This document shows positions 41,526-60,486 of a stretch of 64,000 nucleotides of DNA, piece after piece. The notes below the pieces were generated by a model. The model made no database searches. It was given only the letters and a program-made list of their open reading frames with translations, and had not been told where the DNA came from. This DNA is from Gammaproteobacteria bacterium. GTDB taxonomy: Bacteria > Pseudomonadota > Gammaproteobacteria > SpSt-1174. The translations under genes and the position numbers were made by a program. Position 1 is the first letter of the stretch. The number at the start of each line of letters is the position of its first letter. Where the stretch lies: NCBI GenBank assembly GCA_037388465.1, contig JARRKE010000006.1:2853-66852 (forward strand). Reading direction: 5' to 3'.

Positions 41526-42979
41526 TAACCGGACTCCGTGGATTCGGCAGCTTCGCTGCGCCGGCGCTGCTGGTTCGCCTTTTGCTGCTTGGCCGCTTCC
41601 AGGCGGGCGTTGCGCTCGGCCGCCAGGCGGCGGGTTTCCTCGGTCTTGCGCTGTTCCTCACGCTGGTTCGCGAGGGCACCCTTGGCGAAGTTGAAGTACT
41701 GCACCAGCGGAATGTTCGAGGGGCAGACGTAAGAGCAGGAACCGCAGGAGATGCAGTCGCCCAGCCCGTAGCTCACGGCGCCGTCGATGTCCCCGCTGCG
41801 CACCCGGGACGCCATCTCCAGGGGCATGAGACCGCAGGGGCAGGCGGCCACGCAGCGGGCGCAGCGGATACAGGGGCGCACCTCGCCCGCGTTGATCTCT
41901 TTGGCGGTCAGGGCAATGATGCCGTTGGTGCCCTTGACCACGGGCACCTGCGCATGGGGCAGGACCATGCCCATCATGGGCCCGCCAGCCAGCAGCCTGG
42001 CCGGTTCTTCCTTCAGCCCGCAGGCTTCCAGCAGGTCGCTGACCAGAGTGCCCAGCGGCACCTCCAGGTTGCGTGGCGTGTCCACCGCGCCGCCGCCGAC
42101 GGTGACGATGCGCGAGATCAGCGCCTGATCACGGCGCAGGGCATTCCGGACCGCGTGGGCCGTGGCGACGTTGTGCACCACGATGCCGACATCGGCGCTG
42201 AGCTTGCCGGCCGGCACCTCCAGGCCGGTCAGCGCCTGGATCATCTGCTTTTCCGAACCCATGGGGTAGCGGGTGGGCACGGCGGTGACGTGCACGTCCG
42301 GGCAGGCGGCCGCGGCGGCGGTCATGGCCGCGATCGCATAGGGTTTGTTGTCTTCGATGGCGATGCGCGCGGTGTGCGCATGCAGTGCGCGCATCATGAT
42401 GCGCACGCCGTCGATGATCTCCCGCGGACGTTCCTGCATCAGCCGGTCGTCGCAGGTGAGATAGGGTTCGCACTCGCCGCCGTTGATCACCAGGGTGTGT
42501 ACGGTGTTGCGGCTGCCCAGGTTGAGTTTTACCGCTGCGGGAAAGGCGGCGCCGCCCATGCCGACGATGCCGGCGGCACCGACACGCGCCGCGATCTCCT
42601 CCGGCGTCATGGCAAAGGCGTCGCTGTCGTAGCTGCGCTCCGCCCAGCGCTCCTCGCCGTCCGGTTCCAGGATGACGGTACGTACCGGCAGGCCGGACGG
42701 GTGCGGTGCGGTGAACGGCTCGATGGCGACCACGGTGCCGGACGTGGACGCGTGCACCGGCGCCGAAACCGCCCCCGCGCTGCGTGCCAGGAGCTGGCCC
42801 TTGAGCACGTAGTCGCCGGGTTTGACCAGCGGTTCGGCAGGCGCCCCGATATGCTGCTGCACCGGCAGGTACAGGCGCGCCGGCAGCGGCAGCGGTTCGA
42901 TCTCGCGGTCGGTCGTGGACTGTTTGTGGCCTTCGGGGTGGACCCCGCCGCGAAAGCGCAGACGACGCAGGCGCAACAT
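41525..42979 (-). CDS. rnfC: Rnf complex subunit C
   Basis: RFRGGVHP N-terminus, a NADH/FMN-binding core, two CxxCxxCxxxCP ferredoxin motifs and a Lys/Arg/Glu-rich tail. Confidence 0.95.
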   Translation of the reverse strand: MLRLRRLRFRGGVHPEGHKQSTTDREIEPLPLPARLYLPVQQHIGAPAEPLVKPGDYVLKGQLLARSAGAVSAPVHASTSGTVVAIEPFTAPHPSGLPVRTVILEPDGEERWAERSYDSDAFAMTPEEIAARVGAAGIVGMGGAAFPAAVKLNLGSRNTVHTLVINGGECEPYLTCDDRLMQERPREIIDGVRIMMRALHAHTARIAIEDNKPYAIAAMTAAAAACPDVHVTAVPTRYPMGSEKQMIQALTGLEVPAGKLSADVGIVVHNVATAHAVRNALRRDQALISRIVTVGGGAVDTPRNLEVPLGTLVSDLLEACGLKEEPARLLAGGPMMGMVLPHAQVPVVKGTNGIIALTAKEINAGEVRPCIRCARCVAACPCGLMPLEMASRVRSGDIDGAVSYGLGDCISCGSCSYVCPSNIPLVQYFNFAKGALANQREEQRKTEETRRLAAERNARLEAAKQQKANQQRRRSEAAESTESG

Positions 42980-44182: not shown

Positions 44183-46042
<1,860 letters not shown>

Positions 46043-46046
46043 GGCG

Positions 46047-47624
<1,578 letters not shown>

Positions 47625-49644: not shown

Positions 49645-49962
49645 ATGGCAAAGTTCAGCGTTTCGATGTCGCAGCCGCACGCGCCGGAAGTGGCGTTCGT
49701 CCCCGAACTGCGCCTCTGGCCGCGACTGCATGATGCGGCGGGTTCCGCCTGGGCGCGTCTGATGAACGGTGGGCGCAGGACCCTGGTGCGCTGCGTGTCG
49801 TTGGTGAACGATTGTGACGAGATGGTTCCGGTCGAACTGGGCCGGGTGCCGCGCCGCGTGTGGCGCCGCCACAGCGCCTATCTGGTCTACGACATGGAGG
49901 TACGGGCCGCGGCCGCCAGGCGGATCGCCGGCAACCGGTCGGATGCGCAACCGAACGCCTGA
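49645..49962 (+). CDS. Hypothetical protein embedded in the nifB operon (105 aa)
   Basis: GGAGGAATCATC precedes the ATG. Third-position GC is high. It is tightly packed between fdxN and nifO. No motif recognised. Confidence 0.5.
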   Translation: MAKFSVSMSQPHAPEVAFVPELRLWPRLHDAAGSAWARLMNGGRRTLVRCVSLVNDCDEMVPVELGRVPRRVWRRHSAYLVYDMEVRAAAARRIAGNRSDAQPNA

Positions 49963-50403: not shown

Positions 50404-50975
50404 ACCGGGCCATGAGCGATACCGATGCGGTGCACGCCGCCCACGCCTACCTGATGTCCTTTGCGCAAGGCCGGGCCAACGACGATGCACTCGCCTGCAT
50501 GCTGGCCAGCAATGCTCAGGGGCACGGTGCGCTGCCGTTGCGGTTGGGCCTGTCTGCGGCGGATCACGCGCACATGATCGACCGGCATTTCCCGGGTGCG
50601 TGCTGGTCCACCCCGCAACACGATACGCACAAACCCGACCCGCAGCGCGAAGAGGAACGCGGCGAGCTGCGGCGCTTGCTGCTTGTTAACTGCGCCGGCA
50701 GCGACGAGTCAGAACGTTGGATCGCCGACATCGTCACCGCCGCCTGCATGGGCGGAGACCATCTGTGGCAGGACCTCGGGCTGTGGGCGCGTACCGATCT
50801 CACCGAGCTGATGCGCAACAATTTCCCGGCGCTGGCGGCGCGCAACGACCGGGACATGAAGTGGAAAAAGTTTTTATATAAACAGCTCTGCGTGCAGGAA
50901 GGCATCTACACCTGCCGTTCGCCATCCTGCGAGGTGTGCCCGGACTACCATGCCTGTTTCGGCCCCGAGGACTGA
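50400..50975 (+). CDS. nifQ: Molybdenum-donor protein NifQ
   Basis: C-terminal C-x4-C-x2-C-x5-C motif (CRSPSCEVCPDYHAC). ATGA overlap with the nifO stop. Confidence 0.85.
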   Translation: MNRAMSDTDAVHAAHAYLMSFAQGRANDDALACMLASNAQGHGALPLRLGLSAADHAHMIDRHFPGACWSTPQHDTHKPDPQREEERGELRRLLLVNCAGSDESERWIADIVTAACMGGDHLWQDLGLWARTDLTELMRNNFPALAARNDRDMKWKKFLYKQLCVQEGIYTCRSPSCEVCPDYHACFGPED

Positions 50976-51873
50976 AAGCGCGGACAAGGCGGTTCAGGCA
51001 CGCGCGCTCGGTGCCTATCTCGGACTGGCGGTGGGTGATGCCCTGGGTGCGACCGTGGAGTTCATGACGCCCACCGAGATCCGTGTGCAGTACGGCACGC
51101 ATGATCGTATCCGCGGCGGCGGCTGGCTGGGACTGAAACCCGGCCAGGTCACCGACGACACCACCATGGCGCTCGCGTTGGGAAAATCCATTCTCGCGAC
51201 AGGTGGCGTGGATGCCGCGGCCGCCGCCGAGGCGTTCAGCGACTGGATGGCCGCCAAGCCGGTGGATATCGGCAACACGGTGCGCCGCGGCATCGTCCAT
51301 TATCGACATACCGGCAACACCGAAACGCTACCGAGCGAGCACGATGCCGGCAACGGCGCCTGCATGCGCGTGCTGCCCGTGGCGCTCGCCACGCTGGGGC
51401 GATCACGGGAGACGGTACGCGTGGCCGTGCGTGCCCAGGCGCACGTAACCCATAACAACCCGTTGTCGGATGCCGCCAGCGAAACGGTGGTGGCCATGGT
51501 GCAGTCGGCATTGACGGGCGCGGACAAGCGCCAGTTGCTGCACGGGCCGGCGGCGGGGTTGGTGGAGGCGTTTCCGCTGTTCGCCTTTCGCGGCCGGCGG
51601 CGGGACAATCCCAGCGGCTACATCGTCGAAACCCTGCAGGCGGTGTTGCAGGCCCTGTTCGATACCGACGACTTTCAAAGTTGCCTGATCGATGTGGTCA
51701 ACCGCGGCGGCGACGCCGATACCACCGGCGCCATCGCCGGCATGATCGCGGGCGCCCTGTACGGGCCCGACGCCATTCCGCGGGTCTGGCTGACAAAACT
51801 CGTGCCGGACATCGAGCGTGCCTGCCGTGGCCAGGCCGCGGCATTGGTCGGGCTGGCCGCCAGCAGCTATTGA
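50950..51873 (+). CDS. draG: ADP-ribosyl-[dinitrogen reductase] glycohydrolase DraG
   Basis: ARALGAYLGLAVGDALGATVEFMTP...GGGWL.LKPGQVTDDT...VDIGNT.RRGI...GNGA.MR..P...NRGGDADTTGAIAGM tracks R. rubrum DraG. It overlaps the nifQ 3' end by 26 nt. Confidence 0.9.
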   Translation: MPVSAPRTESADKAVQARALGAYLGLAVGDALGATVEFMTPTEIRVQYGTHDRIRGGGWLGLKPGQVTDDTTMALALGKSILATGGVDAAAAAEAFSDWMAAKPVDIGNTVRRGIVHYRHTGNTETLPSEHDAGNGACMRVLPVALATLGRSRETVRVAVRAQAHVTHNNPLSDAASETVVAMVQSALTGADKRQLLHGPAAGLVEAFPLFAFRGRRRDNPSGYIVETLQAVLQALFDTDDFQSCLIDVVNRGGDADTTGAIAGMIAGALYGPDAIPRVWLTKLVPDIERACRGQAAALVGLAASSY

Positions 51874-51907
51874 AATAAACCGTACGGATTTACCGGCGCG
51901 CGAAAAC

Positions 51908-51939
51908 GCCGCCGGCGTACGGCCCGGCGGCATTTTTTT
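51908..51939 (+). terminator. Rho-independent terminator shared by the convergent draG and SIR2-like genes
   Basis: GCCGCCGG (51908..15) pairs with CCGGCGGC (51924..31) and is followed by ATTTTTTTA. An A-run lies upstream. Confidence 0.75.
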
Positions 51940-51962
51940 ACTGTCTGTAACCCGATGGCGCG

Positions 51963-52844
51963 TCAGCAACCCACCAGCGTCGCATCGGCGGCGAGTTCGG
52001 CCAGTTCCTCGGCGCCGTCTGCACGCAGCAGCGCGTCCGCGCCGGCCTCGATGATTTCGATACCCTGGCGGGCGCAGTAACGCCGCTCCTTGGCGGTGGG
52101 TTCCGGGATCAGCGCCCAACCGCGCGGCTCGCCGGCATCGTAGGTGATGTCCGCCATGACCATGCGTTCCGTATCGCGGGTCAGGCGCAGACCGATGAAC
52201 AGATACTGTTTCGCCTGGCGATAGGACTTGAGAAACGAAGGGATCGCAAAGCCGCCCATCAGCTCGGTGATGTAATCCACGTAATCGGCATCGGAGGCGA
52301 TGAAGTTGGGTTCCGGCCGCGGCGTGCCCATGGGTTTGAACAGCACCGGCAGGCTGGTGTCGACGGCATCCAGTTTTATCTCGTGGTAGGCATTGCCATC
52401 CCACTGAAACAGCTTGAAGCGATATTCAGTGCCGCCGATGCGCGCGACGCCCACGACCAGGGTGTGGGGCGTATCGGCATAGGTGTCCTGCAGCTGCGTG
52501 TCGCGGTTGATGTCGATCACGTACGGCGGCTTGATGCCGGCCAGCCATGTGTGCACGGCCGAGCGGCTCCATGTCTGTTTTTCGTAAAGGTCGGTGAAAA
52601 AGCGGGTGACGTAGTTGCGCCCCGCCTTGAGTTCCAGGTGCATGGCGGCGCGCGGGAATTCGTACATCAGTCGCGGCGCCATGGGCTTGCCCTTGTTCAT
52701 GGCCAGGATCAGGCTGTCGCTGTCGGCGGGTACGGGATCTCCGGCGTCGTTGCGTGCGCCGTTCAGCGCGCCCGCGCCGAGGTAGGGGACGATGCGACCC
52801 GCGCGTACACCCTGGATCAATTCGGTCAGTTGAGCTTGGGACAT
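51963..52844 (-). CDS. SIR2-like (SIR2_2-type) NAD-binding-fold protein, possibly lacking the catalytic His
   Basis: 293 aa. GGAG lies 9 nt before ATG 52844. RIVPYLGAGAL, VIDINRD and FIASDADYVDY blocks resemble the GAGxS, TTNYD and DY blocks of SIR2_2 domains. The K[LI]HG position reads KPMG. Confidence 0.6.
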   Translation of the reverse strand: MSQAQLTELIQGVRAGRIVPYLGAGALNGARNDAGDPVPADSDSLILAMNKGKPMAPRLMYEFPRAAMHLELKAGRNYVTRFFTDLYEKQTWSRSAVHTWLAGIKPPYVIDINRDTQLQDTYADTPHTLVVGVARIGGTEYRFKLFQWDGNAYHEIKLDAVDTSLPVLFKPMGTPRPEPNFIASDADYVDYITELMGGFAIPSFLKSYRQAKQYLFIGLRLTRDTERMVMADITYDAGEPRGWALIPEPTAKERRYCARQGIEIIEAGADALLRADGAEELAELAADATLVGC

Positions 52845-52880
52845 GAGGCATGCTCCTTCACAGTGGATATGTGAAGCGCG

Positions 52881-52896
52881 TGCAAGAACCGGTCCA
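52881..52896 (-). promoter_or_regulatory. Candidate sigma-54 promoter of the SIR2-like gene
   Basis: The minus strand reads TGGACCggttcTTGCA with exact GG-N10-GC spacing, ~37 nt before the ATG. Confidence 0.5.
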
Positions 52897-52972
52897 GGGT
52901 ATGAATAACCGTAAAACCGCGTGATTGCGTGCGGTGGCCGGGGTGGTTGTCGAACACGGGCAAGGCATTGTC

Positions 52973-52988
52973 TGTCGCAAACGCGACA
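52973..52988. promoter_or_regulatory. NifA UAS-like palindrome upstream of the SIR2-like gene
   Basis: TGTCGCAAACGCGACA is a perfect TGT-N10-ACA and a 6-bp inverted repeat. It lies ~80 nt upstream of the -24 element and 9 nt after the draT stop. Confidence 0.5.
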
Positions 52989-52996
52989 AACGGCAT

Positions 52997-53830
52997 TCAG
53001 ACCGGCTCGATCTCGTACAGCCCGCCGAGCACCAGGTGTTCGTCCTCCCCGCCGAGGATGCCGGGCAGCAGGCCGGCGTAGTAGAACACCTTGGCCAGCG
53101 GCACCCGCACATTGATTACGGTGTCGCCGAATTCGTCCGCCCGTTCCGGGTCGGCGGTGAAAGAGTTGAGGTTGTTCAGCAGCACCACGCCGCCGCTCGT
53201 GCTGCGGCTCAGCCAGTCGTGTTCGCCGATGTCGTTGGTGCCGCGGTAAAGCGCGACCCAGCGGCGTTCGGGCTGTTGGCGCGCAAGTTCGTACTGGCAA
53301 TAGGTGTAGAGCAGGTCGAGTTGAGTTTCCAGGGCGTTGGTGTTGTAGGTGCCCAGCGCGCGTTCCTGCAGGTAATGCGTATCGTTGTCTCCGACGTCGC
53401 GACCCAGCGGGCCGCGGTGATAACGCGCCAGCAGACCGAAGCGCGATTCCACCCAGCCTTTCAGTACCGCGCCTTCGCGCCCCTCCGAGTCGAACATCCA
53501 GCCGCGCAGGATGCGCAGGTAGTTCGCCTTTGGTCGTGCATGGCCGGTGTCCGGCGTCAGCCCCGCGTCTTCCAGCGCCTCGAGACGAAAATGCACCGTC
53601 ATGTAGTCCATGTAGTGCTGCGCACGCGGCGCCGGTTCGGGCAAAGCATCCAATTGTTCGAACAGGTCGCGGTGCAGCTCGGCGATGCCATCGATGCTCA
53701 GTCGTGCCGGGTGGTGCTGAAAGGTGAGACTGCCGAGGACCTGGGCCGGCAGGTTGCAGTGGTTGATGGGCAGCCGCGCATCGGCGGGAAGTGTGGGCGC
53801 TGGCGGGCGTTCGAAACGGGGTGCGGTCAT
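52997..53830 (-). CDS. draT: NAD+--dinitrogen-reductase ADP-D-ribosyltransferase DraT
   Basis: YLRILRGWMFDSEGREGAVLKGWVESRFG, ETQLDLLY, LYRGTND and LNNLNSFT track R. rubrum DraT. Confidence 0.9.
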   Translation of the reverse strand: MTAPRFERPPAPTLPADARLPINHCNLPAQVLGSLTFQHHPARLSIDGIAELHRDLFEQLDALPEPAPRAQHYMDYMTVHFRLEALEDAGLTPDTGHARPKANYLRILRGWMFDSEGREGAVLKGWVESRFGLLARYHRGPLGRDVGDNDTHYLQERALGTYNTNALETQLDLLYTYCQYELARQQPERRWVALYRGTNDIGEHDWLSRSTSGGVVLLNNLNSFTADPERADEFGDTVINVRVPLAKVFYYAGLLPGILGGEDEHLVLGGLYEIEPV

Positions 53831-53845
53831 GTAGTCATCCGTACA
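53830..53845. promoter_or_regulatory. NifA UAS upstream of nifH (overlaps the draT start codon)
   Basis: TGTagtcatccgtACA lies ~100 nt upstream of the nifH -24 element. An AT-rich tract (53897..53918) lies between them. Confidence 0.65.
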
Positions 53846-53943
53846 GCAATGCCGTGTTTGTCGTAGATGCGACCAAGTTCCCGGCGGGGCATCTCTGTTA
53901 AAAAATATAGTTAAAACATGCCGTTATGGCAATGTTTCGATGG

Positions 53944-53959
53944 TGGCACGCTCCTTGCT
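53944..53959 (+). promoter_or_regulatory. Sigma-54 promoter of nifHDK
   Basis: TGGCACgctccTTGCT is a consensus -24/-12 element, 48 nt before the nifH ATG. Confidence 0.85.
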
Positions 53960-53994
53960 CAAACGGGGTTGACCTCAACCCATTATCCCATTGA

Positions 53995-54900
<906 letters not shown>

Positions 54901-59427: not shown

Positions 59428-59699
59428 TCACGCCGGAACAGGTGGAGGGAATCGCCGACGGCCTGGCCGGCCAGGGCCTGGATGAATCCGCCGTATCCGC
59501 GCTGCGCGCGGCCTATCCGGATATTCACTTCACCTATTGTTCCGACGACGACATCGTCACCGGCAGTCCGGTGACGGCGCGGTCCGGTTTCAACGTCTAC
59601 CTCGTCGACGGTCGCGAGCACTGCCTGCAGCTTACCGGCGACTACGGTACCGCCACCGGTCTGGTGCTGGCCTATTGTGTAGACGAGGATGAAGACTGA
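59424..59699 (+). CDS. Small nif-cluster protein of unknown function (91 aa)
   Basis: ATGA overlap with the nifY stop. Coding-like bias. It corresponds positionally to the unnamed ORF after nifY in Azotobacter. Confidence 0.55.
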   Translation: MITPEQVEGIADGLAGQGLDESAVSALRAAYPDIHFTYCSDDDIVTGSPVTARSGFNVYLVDGREHCLQLTGDYGTATGLVLAYCVDEDED

Positions 59700-60486
59700 C
59701 TGTCCGGACCCTCTCATGGATACCGTTCCGCCGGACCCGTCATCCCTTCCCGACCGTACGCCCCGGGCCGACTGCAACGGCTGCGCCTATCAGGGCGTGC
59801 TGCTGTCGCGGCAGTTGTGCCGGCCGGGCGATGCCTGCGTGACGGTGGACAGCGGTCGGCAGATCGACCGCTTCTTTCGCGCCAATCCCGACCTCGCCGC
59901 CGGTTATCTGCATGACGCCTTCTGGGAGCGGCGCGCCATCGCCGTGCGCTATGCGCCGCAGGACCGTATCGCCGAGCTGGTCGACGATCCGGACGAGGCG
60001 GTGCGGCGCGCCGTCGCCTACCGCCTGCCGGTCGCACTGCTCGACAGGCTCGCCGGCGATTCGGACCGTGAGGTGCGTATCACCGTCGCCGACCGGCTGC
60101 CGGCGGATCAACTCGAATGCATGGTGCAGGACGACGACTACCTGGTGCGGACCTATGTGGCGCGCCGCCTGCCGGCGGGACGCCTGTTTCGCATGATTCG
60201 CGATCCCGACCGCCAGGTGCGCCAGGTGGTGGCCCAACGCCTGCCCGGGGTCAGCCTGATCTTCATGGCCGACGATCCGGAACCCGAGATCCGGCGCATC
60301 GTCGCCGGCCGCATCGGACCTGAGGCCGCCGCGTCCCTGCTCGACGATCCGGACTGGATCGTACGCCTCGCGGCGGTGGAGCGCGCCGCCCTGCCAGACC
60401 TGACGGCGGTGCTGAACGACCCCGAACCCGAGGTGCGTTCCGCGGCCCGCGAGCGCCTGATTCAGGCCGCCGCCAAATCCATCTGA
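59689..60486 (+). CDS. Leucine-rich-repeat-variant (LRV) protein with an N-terminal Cys cluster (4Fe-4S type)
   Basis: The N-terminus has CNGC...C.....C. It is followed by ~24-aa repeats of D(P/S)D.EVR..VA.RLP... form, as in the A. vinelandii LRV protein of the nif cluster. The start could be 59689 or 59716. Confidence 0.75.
   Translation: MKTDCPDPLMDTVPPDPSSLPDRTPRADCNGCAYQGVLLSRQLCRPGDACVTVDSGRQIDRFFRANPDLAAGYLHDAFWERRAIAVRYAPQDRIAELVDDPDEAVRRAVAYRLPVALLDRLAGDSDREVRITVADRLPADQLECMVQDDDYLVRTYVARRLPAGRLFRMIRDPDRQVRQVVAQRLPGVSLIFMADDPEPEIRRIVAGRIGPEAAASLLDDPDWIVRLAAVERAALPDLTAVLNDPEPEVRSAARERLIQAAAKSI

Follow-up and report, generated by a model that had tools for sequence, protein, structure and literature searches.

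A probable PnfA-family gene between draT and draG: a SIR2_2-type protein without the catalytic histidine in a gammaproteobacterial nif region

What does a sirtuin-like gene do between draT and draG, the two genes of the nitrogenase ADP-ribosylation switch? The question is raised by a stretch of 64,000 nucleotides from a Gammaproteobacteria bacterium (assembly GCA_037388465.1, contig JARRKE010000006.1, positions 2,853 to 66,852), hereafter called the window, in which a minus-strand open reading frame (ORF) of 293 residues is located between these two genes. An earlier, sequence-only reading of the window had described the ORF as a SIR2-like gene co-induced with nitrogenase and embedded in the DraT/DraG system, and had named no described role for a SIR2-family protein in DraT/DraG control. 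In this study, we report that the gene, here called the pnfA-like gene, is very probably a metagenomic addition to the already described PnfA/azo0536 family. Taken together, the best explanation, which we hold at a probability of about 0.7, is that of a PnfA-family member with a NifA-activated promoter and a non-catalytic SIR2_2 fold, and with no role in DraT/DraG control.

The gene, its family and its promoter

The founding member of the family is PST1325 of Pseudomonas stutzeri A1501, named pnfA by Yan et al. (2010, PMC2820453). It encodes a 31.7-kDa product, is divergent from nifHDK and carries a -24/-12 promoter together with TGT-N10-ACA; quantitative reverse-transcription PCR on the wild type and on nifA and rpoN mutants led the authors to the conclusion that its activation is NifA-sigma-54-dependent, with expression 9.7-fold up under N2 fixation and down to 0.15 after ammonium shock (PMC2820453). 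The same study found PnfA homologs only in diazotrophs (Azotobacter vinelandii 72%, Azoarcus BH72 55%, D. aromatica 54%, H. halophila 49%), as well as a second PnfA subfamily at about 20% identity. PST_1325 is currently annotated as 'SIR2 family protein' (PMC11332353). In Azoarcus BH72, azo0536 lies downstream of draT and is one of eight genes with both RpoN and NifA sites, and its regulation by NifA has been reported (PMC3916325). Position, size (32.5 against 31.7 kDa), annotation, promoter and taxonomic spread formed the basis for assigning the window gene to this family, and we are highly confident that, like pnfA/PST1325 and azo0536, it is a nif accessory gene of diazotrophs. The earlier statement that no role had been described in DraT/DraG control holds, as our literature search found no paper tying a SIR2 protein to it, but the family itself received its name and its genetic characterisation in 2010.

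The gene and its upstream region comprise the following features:

51963..52844, minus strand: pnfA-like coding sequence, 293 residues, 32.5 kDa, a single SIR2_2 domain
52853..52856, minus strand: GGAG ribosome-binding site, 8 nt ahead of the ATG, as seen in the sequence itself
52881..52896, minus strand: sigma-54 (-24/-12) promoter TGGACCGGTTCTTGCA, GG-N10-GC spacing exact, ending 36 nt before the ATG
52973..52988, unstranded: NifA upstream activating sequence (UAS) TGTCGCAAACGCGACA, TGTCGC-N4-GCGACA (TGT-N10-ACA)

The ORF was confirmed where the sequence-only reading had drawn it, and its start, the ATG at 52844, is supported because homologs align from residue 1. Both promoter motifs also proved to be located as described, although the UAS is not the perfect 16-nt palindrome that it had been called: in TGTCGCAAACGCGACA, the two 6-bp arms of an inverted repeat flank a 4-nt core that is not palindromic. 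The UAS begins 92 nt upstream of the point where the -24/-12 element starts and 9 nt past the draT stop codon, and the identical 16-mer is found upstream of the ortholog in two other loci (L037 and L058).

Within the window, the sigma-54 pattern occurred 4 times against 3.6 expected and the UAS pattern 6 times against 3.6, with no enrichment over shuffles. As these counts were not above chance, a cross-locus positional test was used instead, on the 78 orthologous loci whose upstream sequence spans 330 nt or more:

TGG-N9-TGC, 40-100 nt before the start codon: 53/78 loci (chance 3.3%)
TGT-N10-ACA, 100-330 nt upstream: 65/78 loci (chance 7.6%)
Both motifs, 55-200 nt apart: 44/78 loci (chance 0.6%)

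The most frequent sigma-54-to-UAS spacing across these loci was 66-80 nt. Since the variable nucleotides within the motifs differ from locus to locus, it is the sites that are conserved and not the entire spacer. The occurrence of the motif pair in 44 of the 78 loci supports the prediction that the pnfA-like gene has a NifA-UAS and a sigma-54 promoter of its own, and hence that it would be co-induced with nitrogenase, as had been proposed from the window alone. Experiments in P. stutzeri (PMC2820453) and Azoarcus (PMC3916325, PMC8467165) agree with this. RNA-seq in Azoarcus showed that azo0536 and the hemerythrin gene that follows it, dcrH1 (azo0535), respond to N2 fixation and that draT does not, for which reason the authors proposed a secondary promoter (PMC8467165).

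Two other observations concern the promoter sequences. A 56-residue ORF in public gene calls, without a Pfam family (window about 52826-52996, minus strand; also L082:2599-2769), spans the UAS and the sigma-54 promoter in the draT-pnfA spacer and overlaps the pnfA start; it is probably a spurious gene call. The fourth exact match to TGG-N8-TTGCW in the window (41571-41586, plus strand) falls where the minus-strand ORFs of rnfC and rnfD meet, on the strand opposite to them, and is most likely a chance match.

The SIR2_2 fold and its active site

The following codons of the pnfA-like coding sequence are referred to below:

52508..52506, minus strand: N113
52331..52329, minus strand: Met172, at the catalytic-His position
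51974..51966, minus strand: the C-terminal V-G-C

The window protein matched Pfam SIR2_2 (PF13289) over residues 149-265 with 34.9 bits, the curated gathering cut-off being 24.5, and the same family was matched by 22/22 members of alignment A2. A PDB sequence search with the family profile gave three chance matches only, and the fold was for this reason tested by structure prediction and Foldseek. The AlphaFold2 model, built from 26 homologs, reached a predicted local distance difference test score (pLDDT) of 85.4 and a predicted template-modelling score (pTM) of 0.86, with disorder confined to the last 13 residues. Its best Foldseek matches were KomC/HAM-SIR2, DSR2, ThsA and AVAST5 (E 1e-9 to 1e-7; template-modelling score, TM, 0.58-0.63). 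The SIR2_2/ThsA-like fold that had been suggested by eye was thus upheld by the Pfam score, the AlphaFold model and the structural matches alike.

The nearest relatives with canonical motifs were four proteins of ~22% identity that carry TNYD and K-[MIL]-H-G. When the family profile was aligned to these four canonical SIR2_2 proteins with hhalign (99.4% probability), LGAGAL paired with LGAGAS, the Ser of GAGxS being Leu in the ORF; I-N113-R-D115 (IDINRD) paired with T-N-Y-D (TTNYD); K170-P-M172-G173 with K-M-H-G, the catalytic His being replaced by Met172; D-A-D187-Y188 with E-D-D-Y; and LFIGLRL with LFLGYSL. The motif calls made from the window alone (RIVPYLGAGAL, VIDINRD and FIASDADYVDY), and the observation that KPMG lacks the catalytic His, agree with this alignment. 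The dinucleotide-binding landmarks are kept, namely the GxG loop (L22-G23-A-G25), Asn113-x-Asp115, Gly173 and Asp187-Tyr188, and P20, G23, R76, D115, G173, D187, G218 and R227 are invariant even with respect to canonical SIR2_2 enzymes. Across the wider nif-linked clade the catalytic-His position is occupied by M, L, A, T, Y or F, with H in occasional cases only, and in a rhizobial subfamily the catalytic Asn is additionally replaced by W or G. H127 was considered as a stand-in for the catalytic His and rejected, because its invariance holds for the core clade and not for the wider nif-linked family.

A Pfam scan of the protein at E<=1 returned only PF13289 and no match to PF02146 (classical SIR2). 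With two cysteines only (C257 and C293), there is no Zn-binding Cys4 module. No defence model was matched in a PADLOC scan of the window protein at E<=0.01, whereas two of the four canonical outgroup proteins, scanned in the same way, matched the ThsA and Dsr2 models. The protein consists of a single domain and carries no sensor domain, and no defence partner gene was found, the neighbours all being nif or dra genes. Identity was 62-70% among members from the Gamma-, Beta-, Zeta- and Alphaproteobacteria, and about 80 positions are invariant in alignment A1; a comparison of this conservation with that of neighbouring genes is of qualitative use only, being biased by the choice of loci for their similarity to the pnfA-like protein. 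Judged by alignment and model, the pnfA-like protein is a member of the SIR2_2/ThsA-like (DHS-like Rossmann) fold that lacks the catalytic His. The loss of this residue disfavours the deacetylase and NADase roles considered in the literature.

Linkage to the nif cluster and downstream partners

The family is both large and tight: more than 4,700 database proteins match the pnfA-like protein, only 44 of the 50%-identity clusters attain E<=1e-30, and at least 565 species genomes carry a pnfA-type gene. The family extends over Gamma-, Beta-, Zeta- and Alphaproteobacteria and the Campylobacterales, and a cluster look-up of distant representatives returned only the name 'SIR2 family protein' or hypothetical. 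The gene neighbourhood was surveyed in the 80 best loci. Query genes of the nif, rnf or dra type adjoin the pnfA-like gene in 66/80, and the upstream neighbour could be classified in the 67 loci with enough upstream sequence:

draT, same strand, adjacent: 16/67 loci
draT, same strand, other genes between: 16/67 loci
nifH, divergent, adjacent, no draT: 10/67 loci
nifH, divergent, with a gap: 1/67 loci
nifQ or nifO, same direction: 4/67 loci
nifE, divergent: 3/67 loci
No nif, rnf or dra query gene: 17/67 loci

Linkage to draT is therefore recurrent (32/67 loci), as had been anticipated, but not exclusive, and the order draT, pnfA-like gene, draG of the window occurs in about 16 loci. Loci with the gene next to nifH and without draT include Pseudomaricurvus, Oceanobacter, Halieaceae and a Hyphomicrobiales metagenome-assembled genome. 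Two of the 17 loci without upstream query genes were inspected. In both, L031:10001-10861 (Thiothrix) and L027:10001-10873, the copy stands alone among housekeeping genes (cytochrome bc1, aminotransferase, PabB-like, PanE) and keeps the pair of sigma-54 site and TGT-N10-ACA at the usual distances. Membership of the NifA regulon is thus more constant than the genomic position of pnfA-type genes. The conserved partner is the nif cluster and not draT/draG, and draT is one more gene that can fill the position divergent from nifH. An obligate co-occurrence or co-location with draT and draG was not found, as draT-less, stand-alone and nifQ-linked copies exist. The claim that the gene is tied to the DraT/DraG switch is consequently not supported: besides the copies beside nifH without draT, beside nifQ or nifE, or standing alone, A1501 has a pnfA gene and lacks DraT and DraG (PMC2820453), and a related rhizobial subfamily ends the nifB operon on symbiosis plasmids.

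In Beggiatoa and Thiotrichaceae (L018:4091, L020:10001 and L035:9986), nifQ runs on the same strand up to the pnfA-type start or overlaps it, and these three Beggiatoa-type copies have no promoter motifs of their own. Because the gene abuts nifQ and such motifs are missing, these copies are probably co-transcribed with nifO and nifQ.

Downstream, a gene for a hemerythrin and/or for a small Cys-rich protein follows the pnfA-type gene on the same strand in 48/80 loci (examples are L013:10890-11315 and L028:10877-11116). The small ORF encodes ~75 residues with the pattern C-x6-C-x7-C-x2-C and no Pfam match (33/80 loci), and the hemerythrin-domain ORF (PF01814) about 130-140 residues (34/80 loci). 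These arrangements suggest an operon of pnfA, Cys-protein and hemerythrin genes driven by NifA, and the frequency with which the hemerythrin gene follows is suggestive of a role linked to O2 or nitric oxide (NO).

A tail ending in xGC (V-G-C in the window, residues 291-293, disordered) was seen in 83/120 of the closest proteins and in 25/80 species loci, but not in the Pseudomonadales, Oceanospirillales and Zoogloea types. It was considered as a DraT-related feature and rejected, the tail being found in 13 loci with draT and 12 without.

The rhizobial-type 'SIR2 family protein' was located on 72 plasmids, mostly rhizobial symbiosis plasmids. On p42d of R. etli CFN42 (L081:6950-7888, RHE_RS30545) it is the last gene of the row nifA-nifB-fdx-nifZ-nifT. 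The R. etli-type protein, about 300 residues long, is 26-28% identical over a full-length alignment; its catalytic-Asn position holds Trp and its His position Tyr.

The window itself is a nif region of the gammaproteobacterial type. Its first part contains rnf (minus strand), followed on the plus strand by nifL, nifA, nifB, a ferredoxin gene, a 105-residue ORF, an ArsC-like gene for a 'nitrogenase-associated protein', nifQ and draG; its second part contains the pnfA-like ORF and draT (minus strand), followed on the plus strand by nifHDKT, a nifY/X-like gene, a 265-residue ORF and nifENX. The neighbours most relevant to the gene are:

52997..53830, minus strand: draT, upstream neighbour and not part of the unit (Pfam DRAT, 325.6 bits)
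50950..51873, plus strand: draG, convergent neighbour of the ORF (TIGR02662, 404 bits)
51908..51931, unstranded: bidirectional intrinsic terminator, 8 G-C pairs, with T-runs on both strands
46047..47624, plus strand: nifA, presumed trans-activator of the pnfA-like promoter (TIGR01817, 705.8 bits)
44231..46042: nifL

The start of nifH, at 54007 on the plus strand, is divergent from draT, giving the order nifH (plus), draT (minus), ORF (minus), and draG closes the row nifB-fdx-orf-nitro_assoc-nifQ-draG. The terminator at 51908..51931 is common to the convergent pnfA-like gene and draG and ends both, and the pnfA-like gene is for this reason monocistronic in the window. An Rfam scan of 50900..54100, including the spacer, on both strands returned no RNA family at E<=0.1.

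Three further observations were made in this region. A sigma-70-like promoter candidate, TTGCCA-17-TATATT (53904-53932, minus strand, 10/12 matches), was noted between nifH and draT, facing draT, which is consistent with NifA-independent expression of draT. The 105-residue ORF (49645-49962, plus strand), between the ferredoxin gene and the ArsC-like nitrogenase-associated gene, has no Pfam match. The 265-residue ORF (59689-60486, plus strand), between the nifY/X-like gene and nifE, has no NCBIfam match and is kept at 53-63% identity in 18 related loci.

Possible roles, and comparison with known systems

For published relatives, a contribution to nitrogenase activity beyond transcription has been shown during O2 or nitrate respiration. 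At 0.5% O2, a non-polar pnfA mutant of A1501 retained 23% of nitrogenase activity while nifH mRNA was unchanged; it had no defect in strict anaerobiosis, lost nitrate-supported fixation and could be complemented (PMC2820453). Expression of the window gene would start at the NifA-activated sigma-54 promoter inside the draT-pnfA spacer, rise with that of nitrogenase and stop at the terminator shared with draG, draT probably being expressed separately. Tentatively, and as a possibility that we place well short of even, PnfA may bind a ligand of the NAD(H)/ADP-ribose type without sirtuin or NADase turnover and function post-transcriptionally as a sensor or adaptor protecting or sustaining nitrogenase. 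Such a protein would keep nitrogenase active during O2 or nitrate respiration, under oxidative or nitrosative conditions, and in many relatives might act jointly with the co-transcribed hemerythrin and the small Cys-rich protein. Adjacency to draT most likely reflects the shared slot divergent from nifH and not a role in the control of ADP-ribosylation.

Several points weigh against this account. The window lacks the hemerythrin and Cys-rich partner genes, and the pnfA phenotype was reported by one study only, for a mutant made by plasmid integration (PMC2820453). Orthology to PST1325 and azo0536, which we nevertheless consider very probable, was inferred from locus features and not from direct alignment; a homolog search among 5.8 billion proteins from the Pseudomonadales-type ortholog L066 returned no named P. 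stutzeri or A. vinelandii protein among the best 120. The Ser of GAGxS and the Ser of G-[YS]-S-L are both replaced, by which NAD binding itself could be lost, and the very high conservation is likewise compatible with a genuine enzyme of non-canonical chemistry.

The last point bears on the proposal of an active sirtuin-type enzyme, a lysine deacylase or protein ADP-ribosyltransferase that modifies NifH, NifDK or NifA post-translationally, as put forward for ZMO1821 and again for Thalassolituus. The SIR2_2 fold, the retention of Asn113 and Asp115 in the clade of the window protein and the very strong sequence conservation would accord with it, as would a pnfA mutation that hits nitrogenase activity and not nifH transcription (PMC2820453) and the acetylation of Nif proteins in Zymomonas mobilis (PMC8600466). 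Nevertheless, the general-base His is Met here, its position varies (M, L, A, T, Y or F) over the nif-linked clade as a whole, the rhizobial subfamily is without the Asn as well, neither a PF02146 match nor Zn-ribbon cysteines are present, and our literature search found no biochemical follow-up of PnfA and no biochemical support for any family member, so that such an enzyme appears quite improbable. The same loss of catalytic residues, with the replaced serine of GAGxS, would suit a structural or chaperone-like stabiliser of nitrogenase that binds no nucleotide and acts through protein-protein contacts only, like O2-protection factors such as the Shethna protein or CowN; high conservation over the whole surface is consistent with a very conserved partner, and the O2- and nitrate-dependent phenotype (PMC2820453) and the hemerythrin neighbour would fit too. 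However, the residues that stay invariant with respect to canonical SIR2_2 enzymes include the pocket landmarks G23, D115, G173, D187 and G218, which suggests that the pocket is still under selection, and we regard a purely structural role as unlikely.

DraT uses NAD+ as donor, and a dedicated accessory of DraT/DraG that senses or consumes NAD+ for DraT, or binds ADP-ribosyl-NifH, would explain why the gene follows draT on the same strand in 32/67 informative loci and lies between draT and draG in about 16, the window among them. Such a function would, however, be hard to reconcile with a family member that is present, with a phenotype, in A1501, with 10 loci beside nifH without draT and others beside nifQ, nifE or standing alone, with the 16 loci in which other genes intervene between draT and the pnfA-like gene, with an xGC tail uncorrelated with draT, and with a regulation of azo0536 unlike that of draT in Azoarcus (PMC8467165); it is very improbable. 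That the gene is a passenger in the nif region encoding an anti-phage NADase of the ThsA/DSR type is suggested by the nearest solved structures, which are defence SIR2 proteins. The lack of a PADLOC match, of a sensor or partner domain and of the catalytic His speaks against it, and nif synteny and a NifA promoter conserved in dozens of species effectively refute it. Returning to the sensor or adaptor favoured above, it could be extended to a nif-specific clade of SIR2 pseudoenzymes whose pocket senses NAD+/NADH or a signal derived from ADP-ribose and relays the respiratory or redox state to nitrogenase, possibly through NifH binding, with hemerythrin reporting O2 or NO in many species; if draT is present, that pocket could also read ADP-ribosyl-Arg101 or local NAD+. 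This extension is speculative and, we think, a long shot. If true, nitrogenase would be controlled after translation at a third level that has so far gone unrecognised.

PnfA-type genes rank with the most highly conserved nif-linked genes that lack an assigned biochemical function, and one published mutant loses three quarters of nitrogenase activity. Beyond the published accounts that we found, this study adds that the nif-linked SIR2_2 clade has systematically lost canonical catalytic residues, a finding that weakens the case for a deacetylase, and it adds the widespread putative operon of pnfA, Cys-rich ORF and hemerythrin. The missing His, together with the missing Asn in the rhizobial subfamily, shifts the experimental focus to ligand binding and partner proteins, and the hemerythrin and Cys-rich partners lead to a concrete O2/NO hypothesis of relevance to engineering nitrogenase into aerobic hosts. 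The draT/draG setting of the pnfA-like gene is incidental.

Among known systems, the classical sirtuins (CobB, Sir2Tm) share the DHS-like Rossmann NAD-binding fold, but the window protein is not matched by PF02146 and has neither a Zn-binding Cys4 module nor the catalytic His. The defence SIR2 NADases (ThsA, DSR2, KomC/HAM-SIR2 and AVAST5) are the closest solved folds (TM about 0.6) and show the SIR2_2 landmarks; they require Asn and His and carry sensor domains or partners, whereas the window protein has no His, a single domain and no PADLOC model, and is encoded by a nif-regulon gene. The rhizobial 'SIR2 family protein' is likewise a nif-linked SIR2_2 protein of about 300 residues that aligns over its full length, but its gene ends the nifB row and is not divergent from nifH, identity is 26-28%, and Asn and His are both replaced; it is likely to be the 'second subfamily' of Yan et al.

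SIR2-like proteins have also been described for Z. mobilis and Thalassolituus, and were compared here by description only. ZMO1821, in the nif island of Z. mobilis beside nifH, accumulates under N2 fixation in an organism without DraT/DraG (PMC8600466, PMC8594446), and a SIR2_2 protein is encoded beside nifH in 23/25 Thalassolituus genomes (10.64898/2026.08.28.747955). The position in a nif island or beside nifH is shared with the window gene; the authors read both proteins as putative deacetylases (PMC8600466, 10.64898/2026.08.28.747955), which the missing His of the PnfA-type family makes doubtful.

PnfA of A1501 resembles the window protein in size (~32 kDa), in its annotation as 'SIR2 family protein', in its location on the side divergent from nifHDK and in the combination of -24/-12 promoter and TGT-N10-ACA. 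The two loci, likened by these features and not by direct alignment, differ in that A1501 has no draT or draG and its pnfA directly faces nifH and seems to lead an operon with PST1324-1322, whereas in the window draT is interposed and the gene is monocistronic. In Azoarcus olearius BH72, dcrH1 (azo0535) follows azo0536, whereas the window gene meets draG head-on at a shared terminator; azo0536 nonetheless adjoins draT on its downstream side, as in the window, and shares with the window gene the RpoN and NifA sites and the architecture of an internal promoter.

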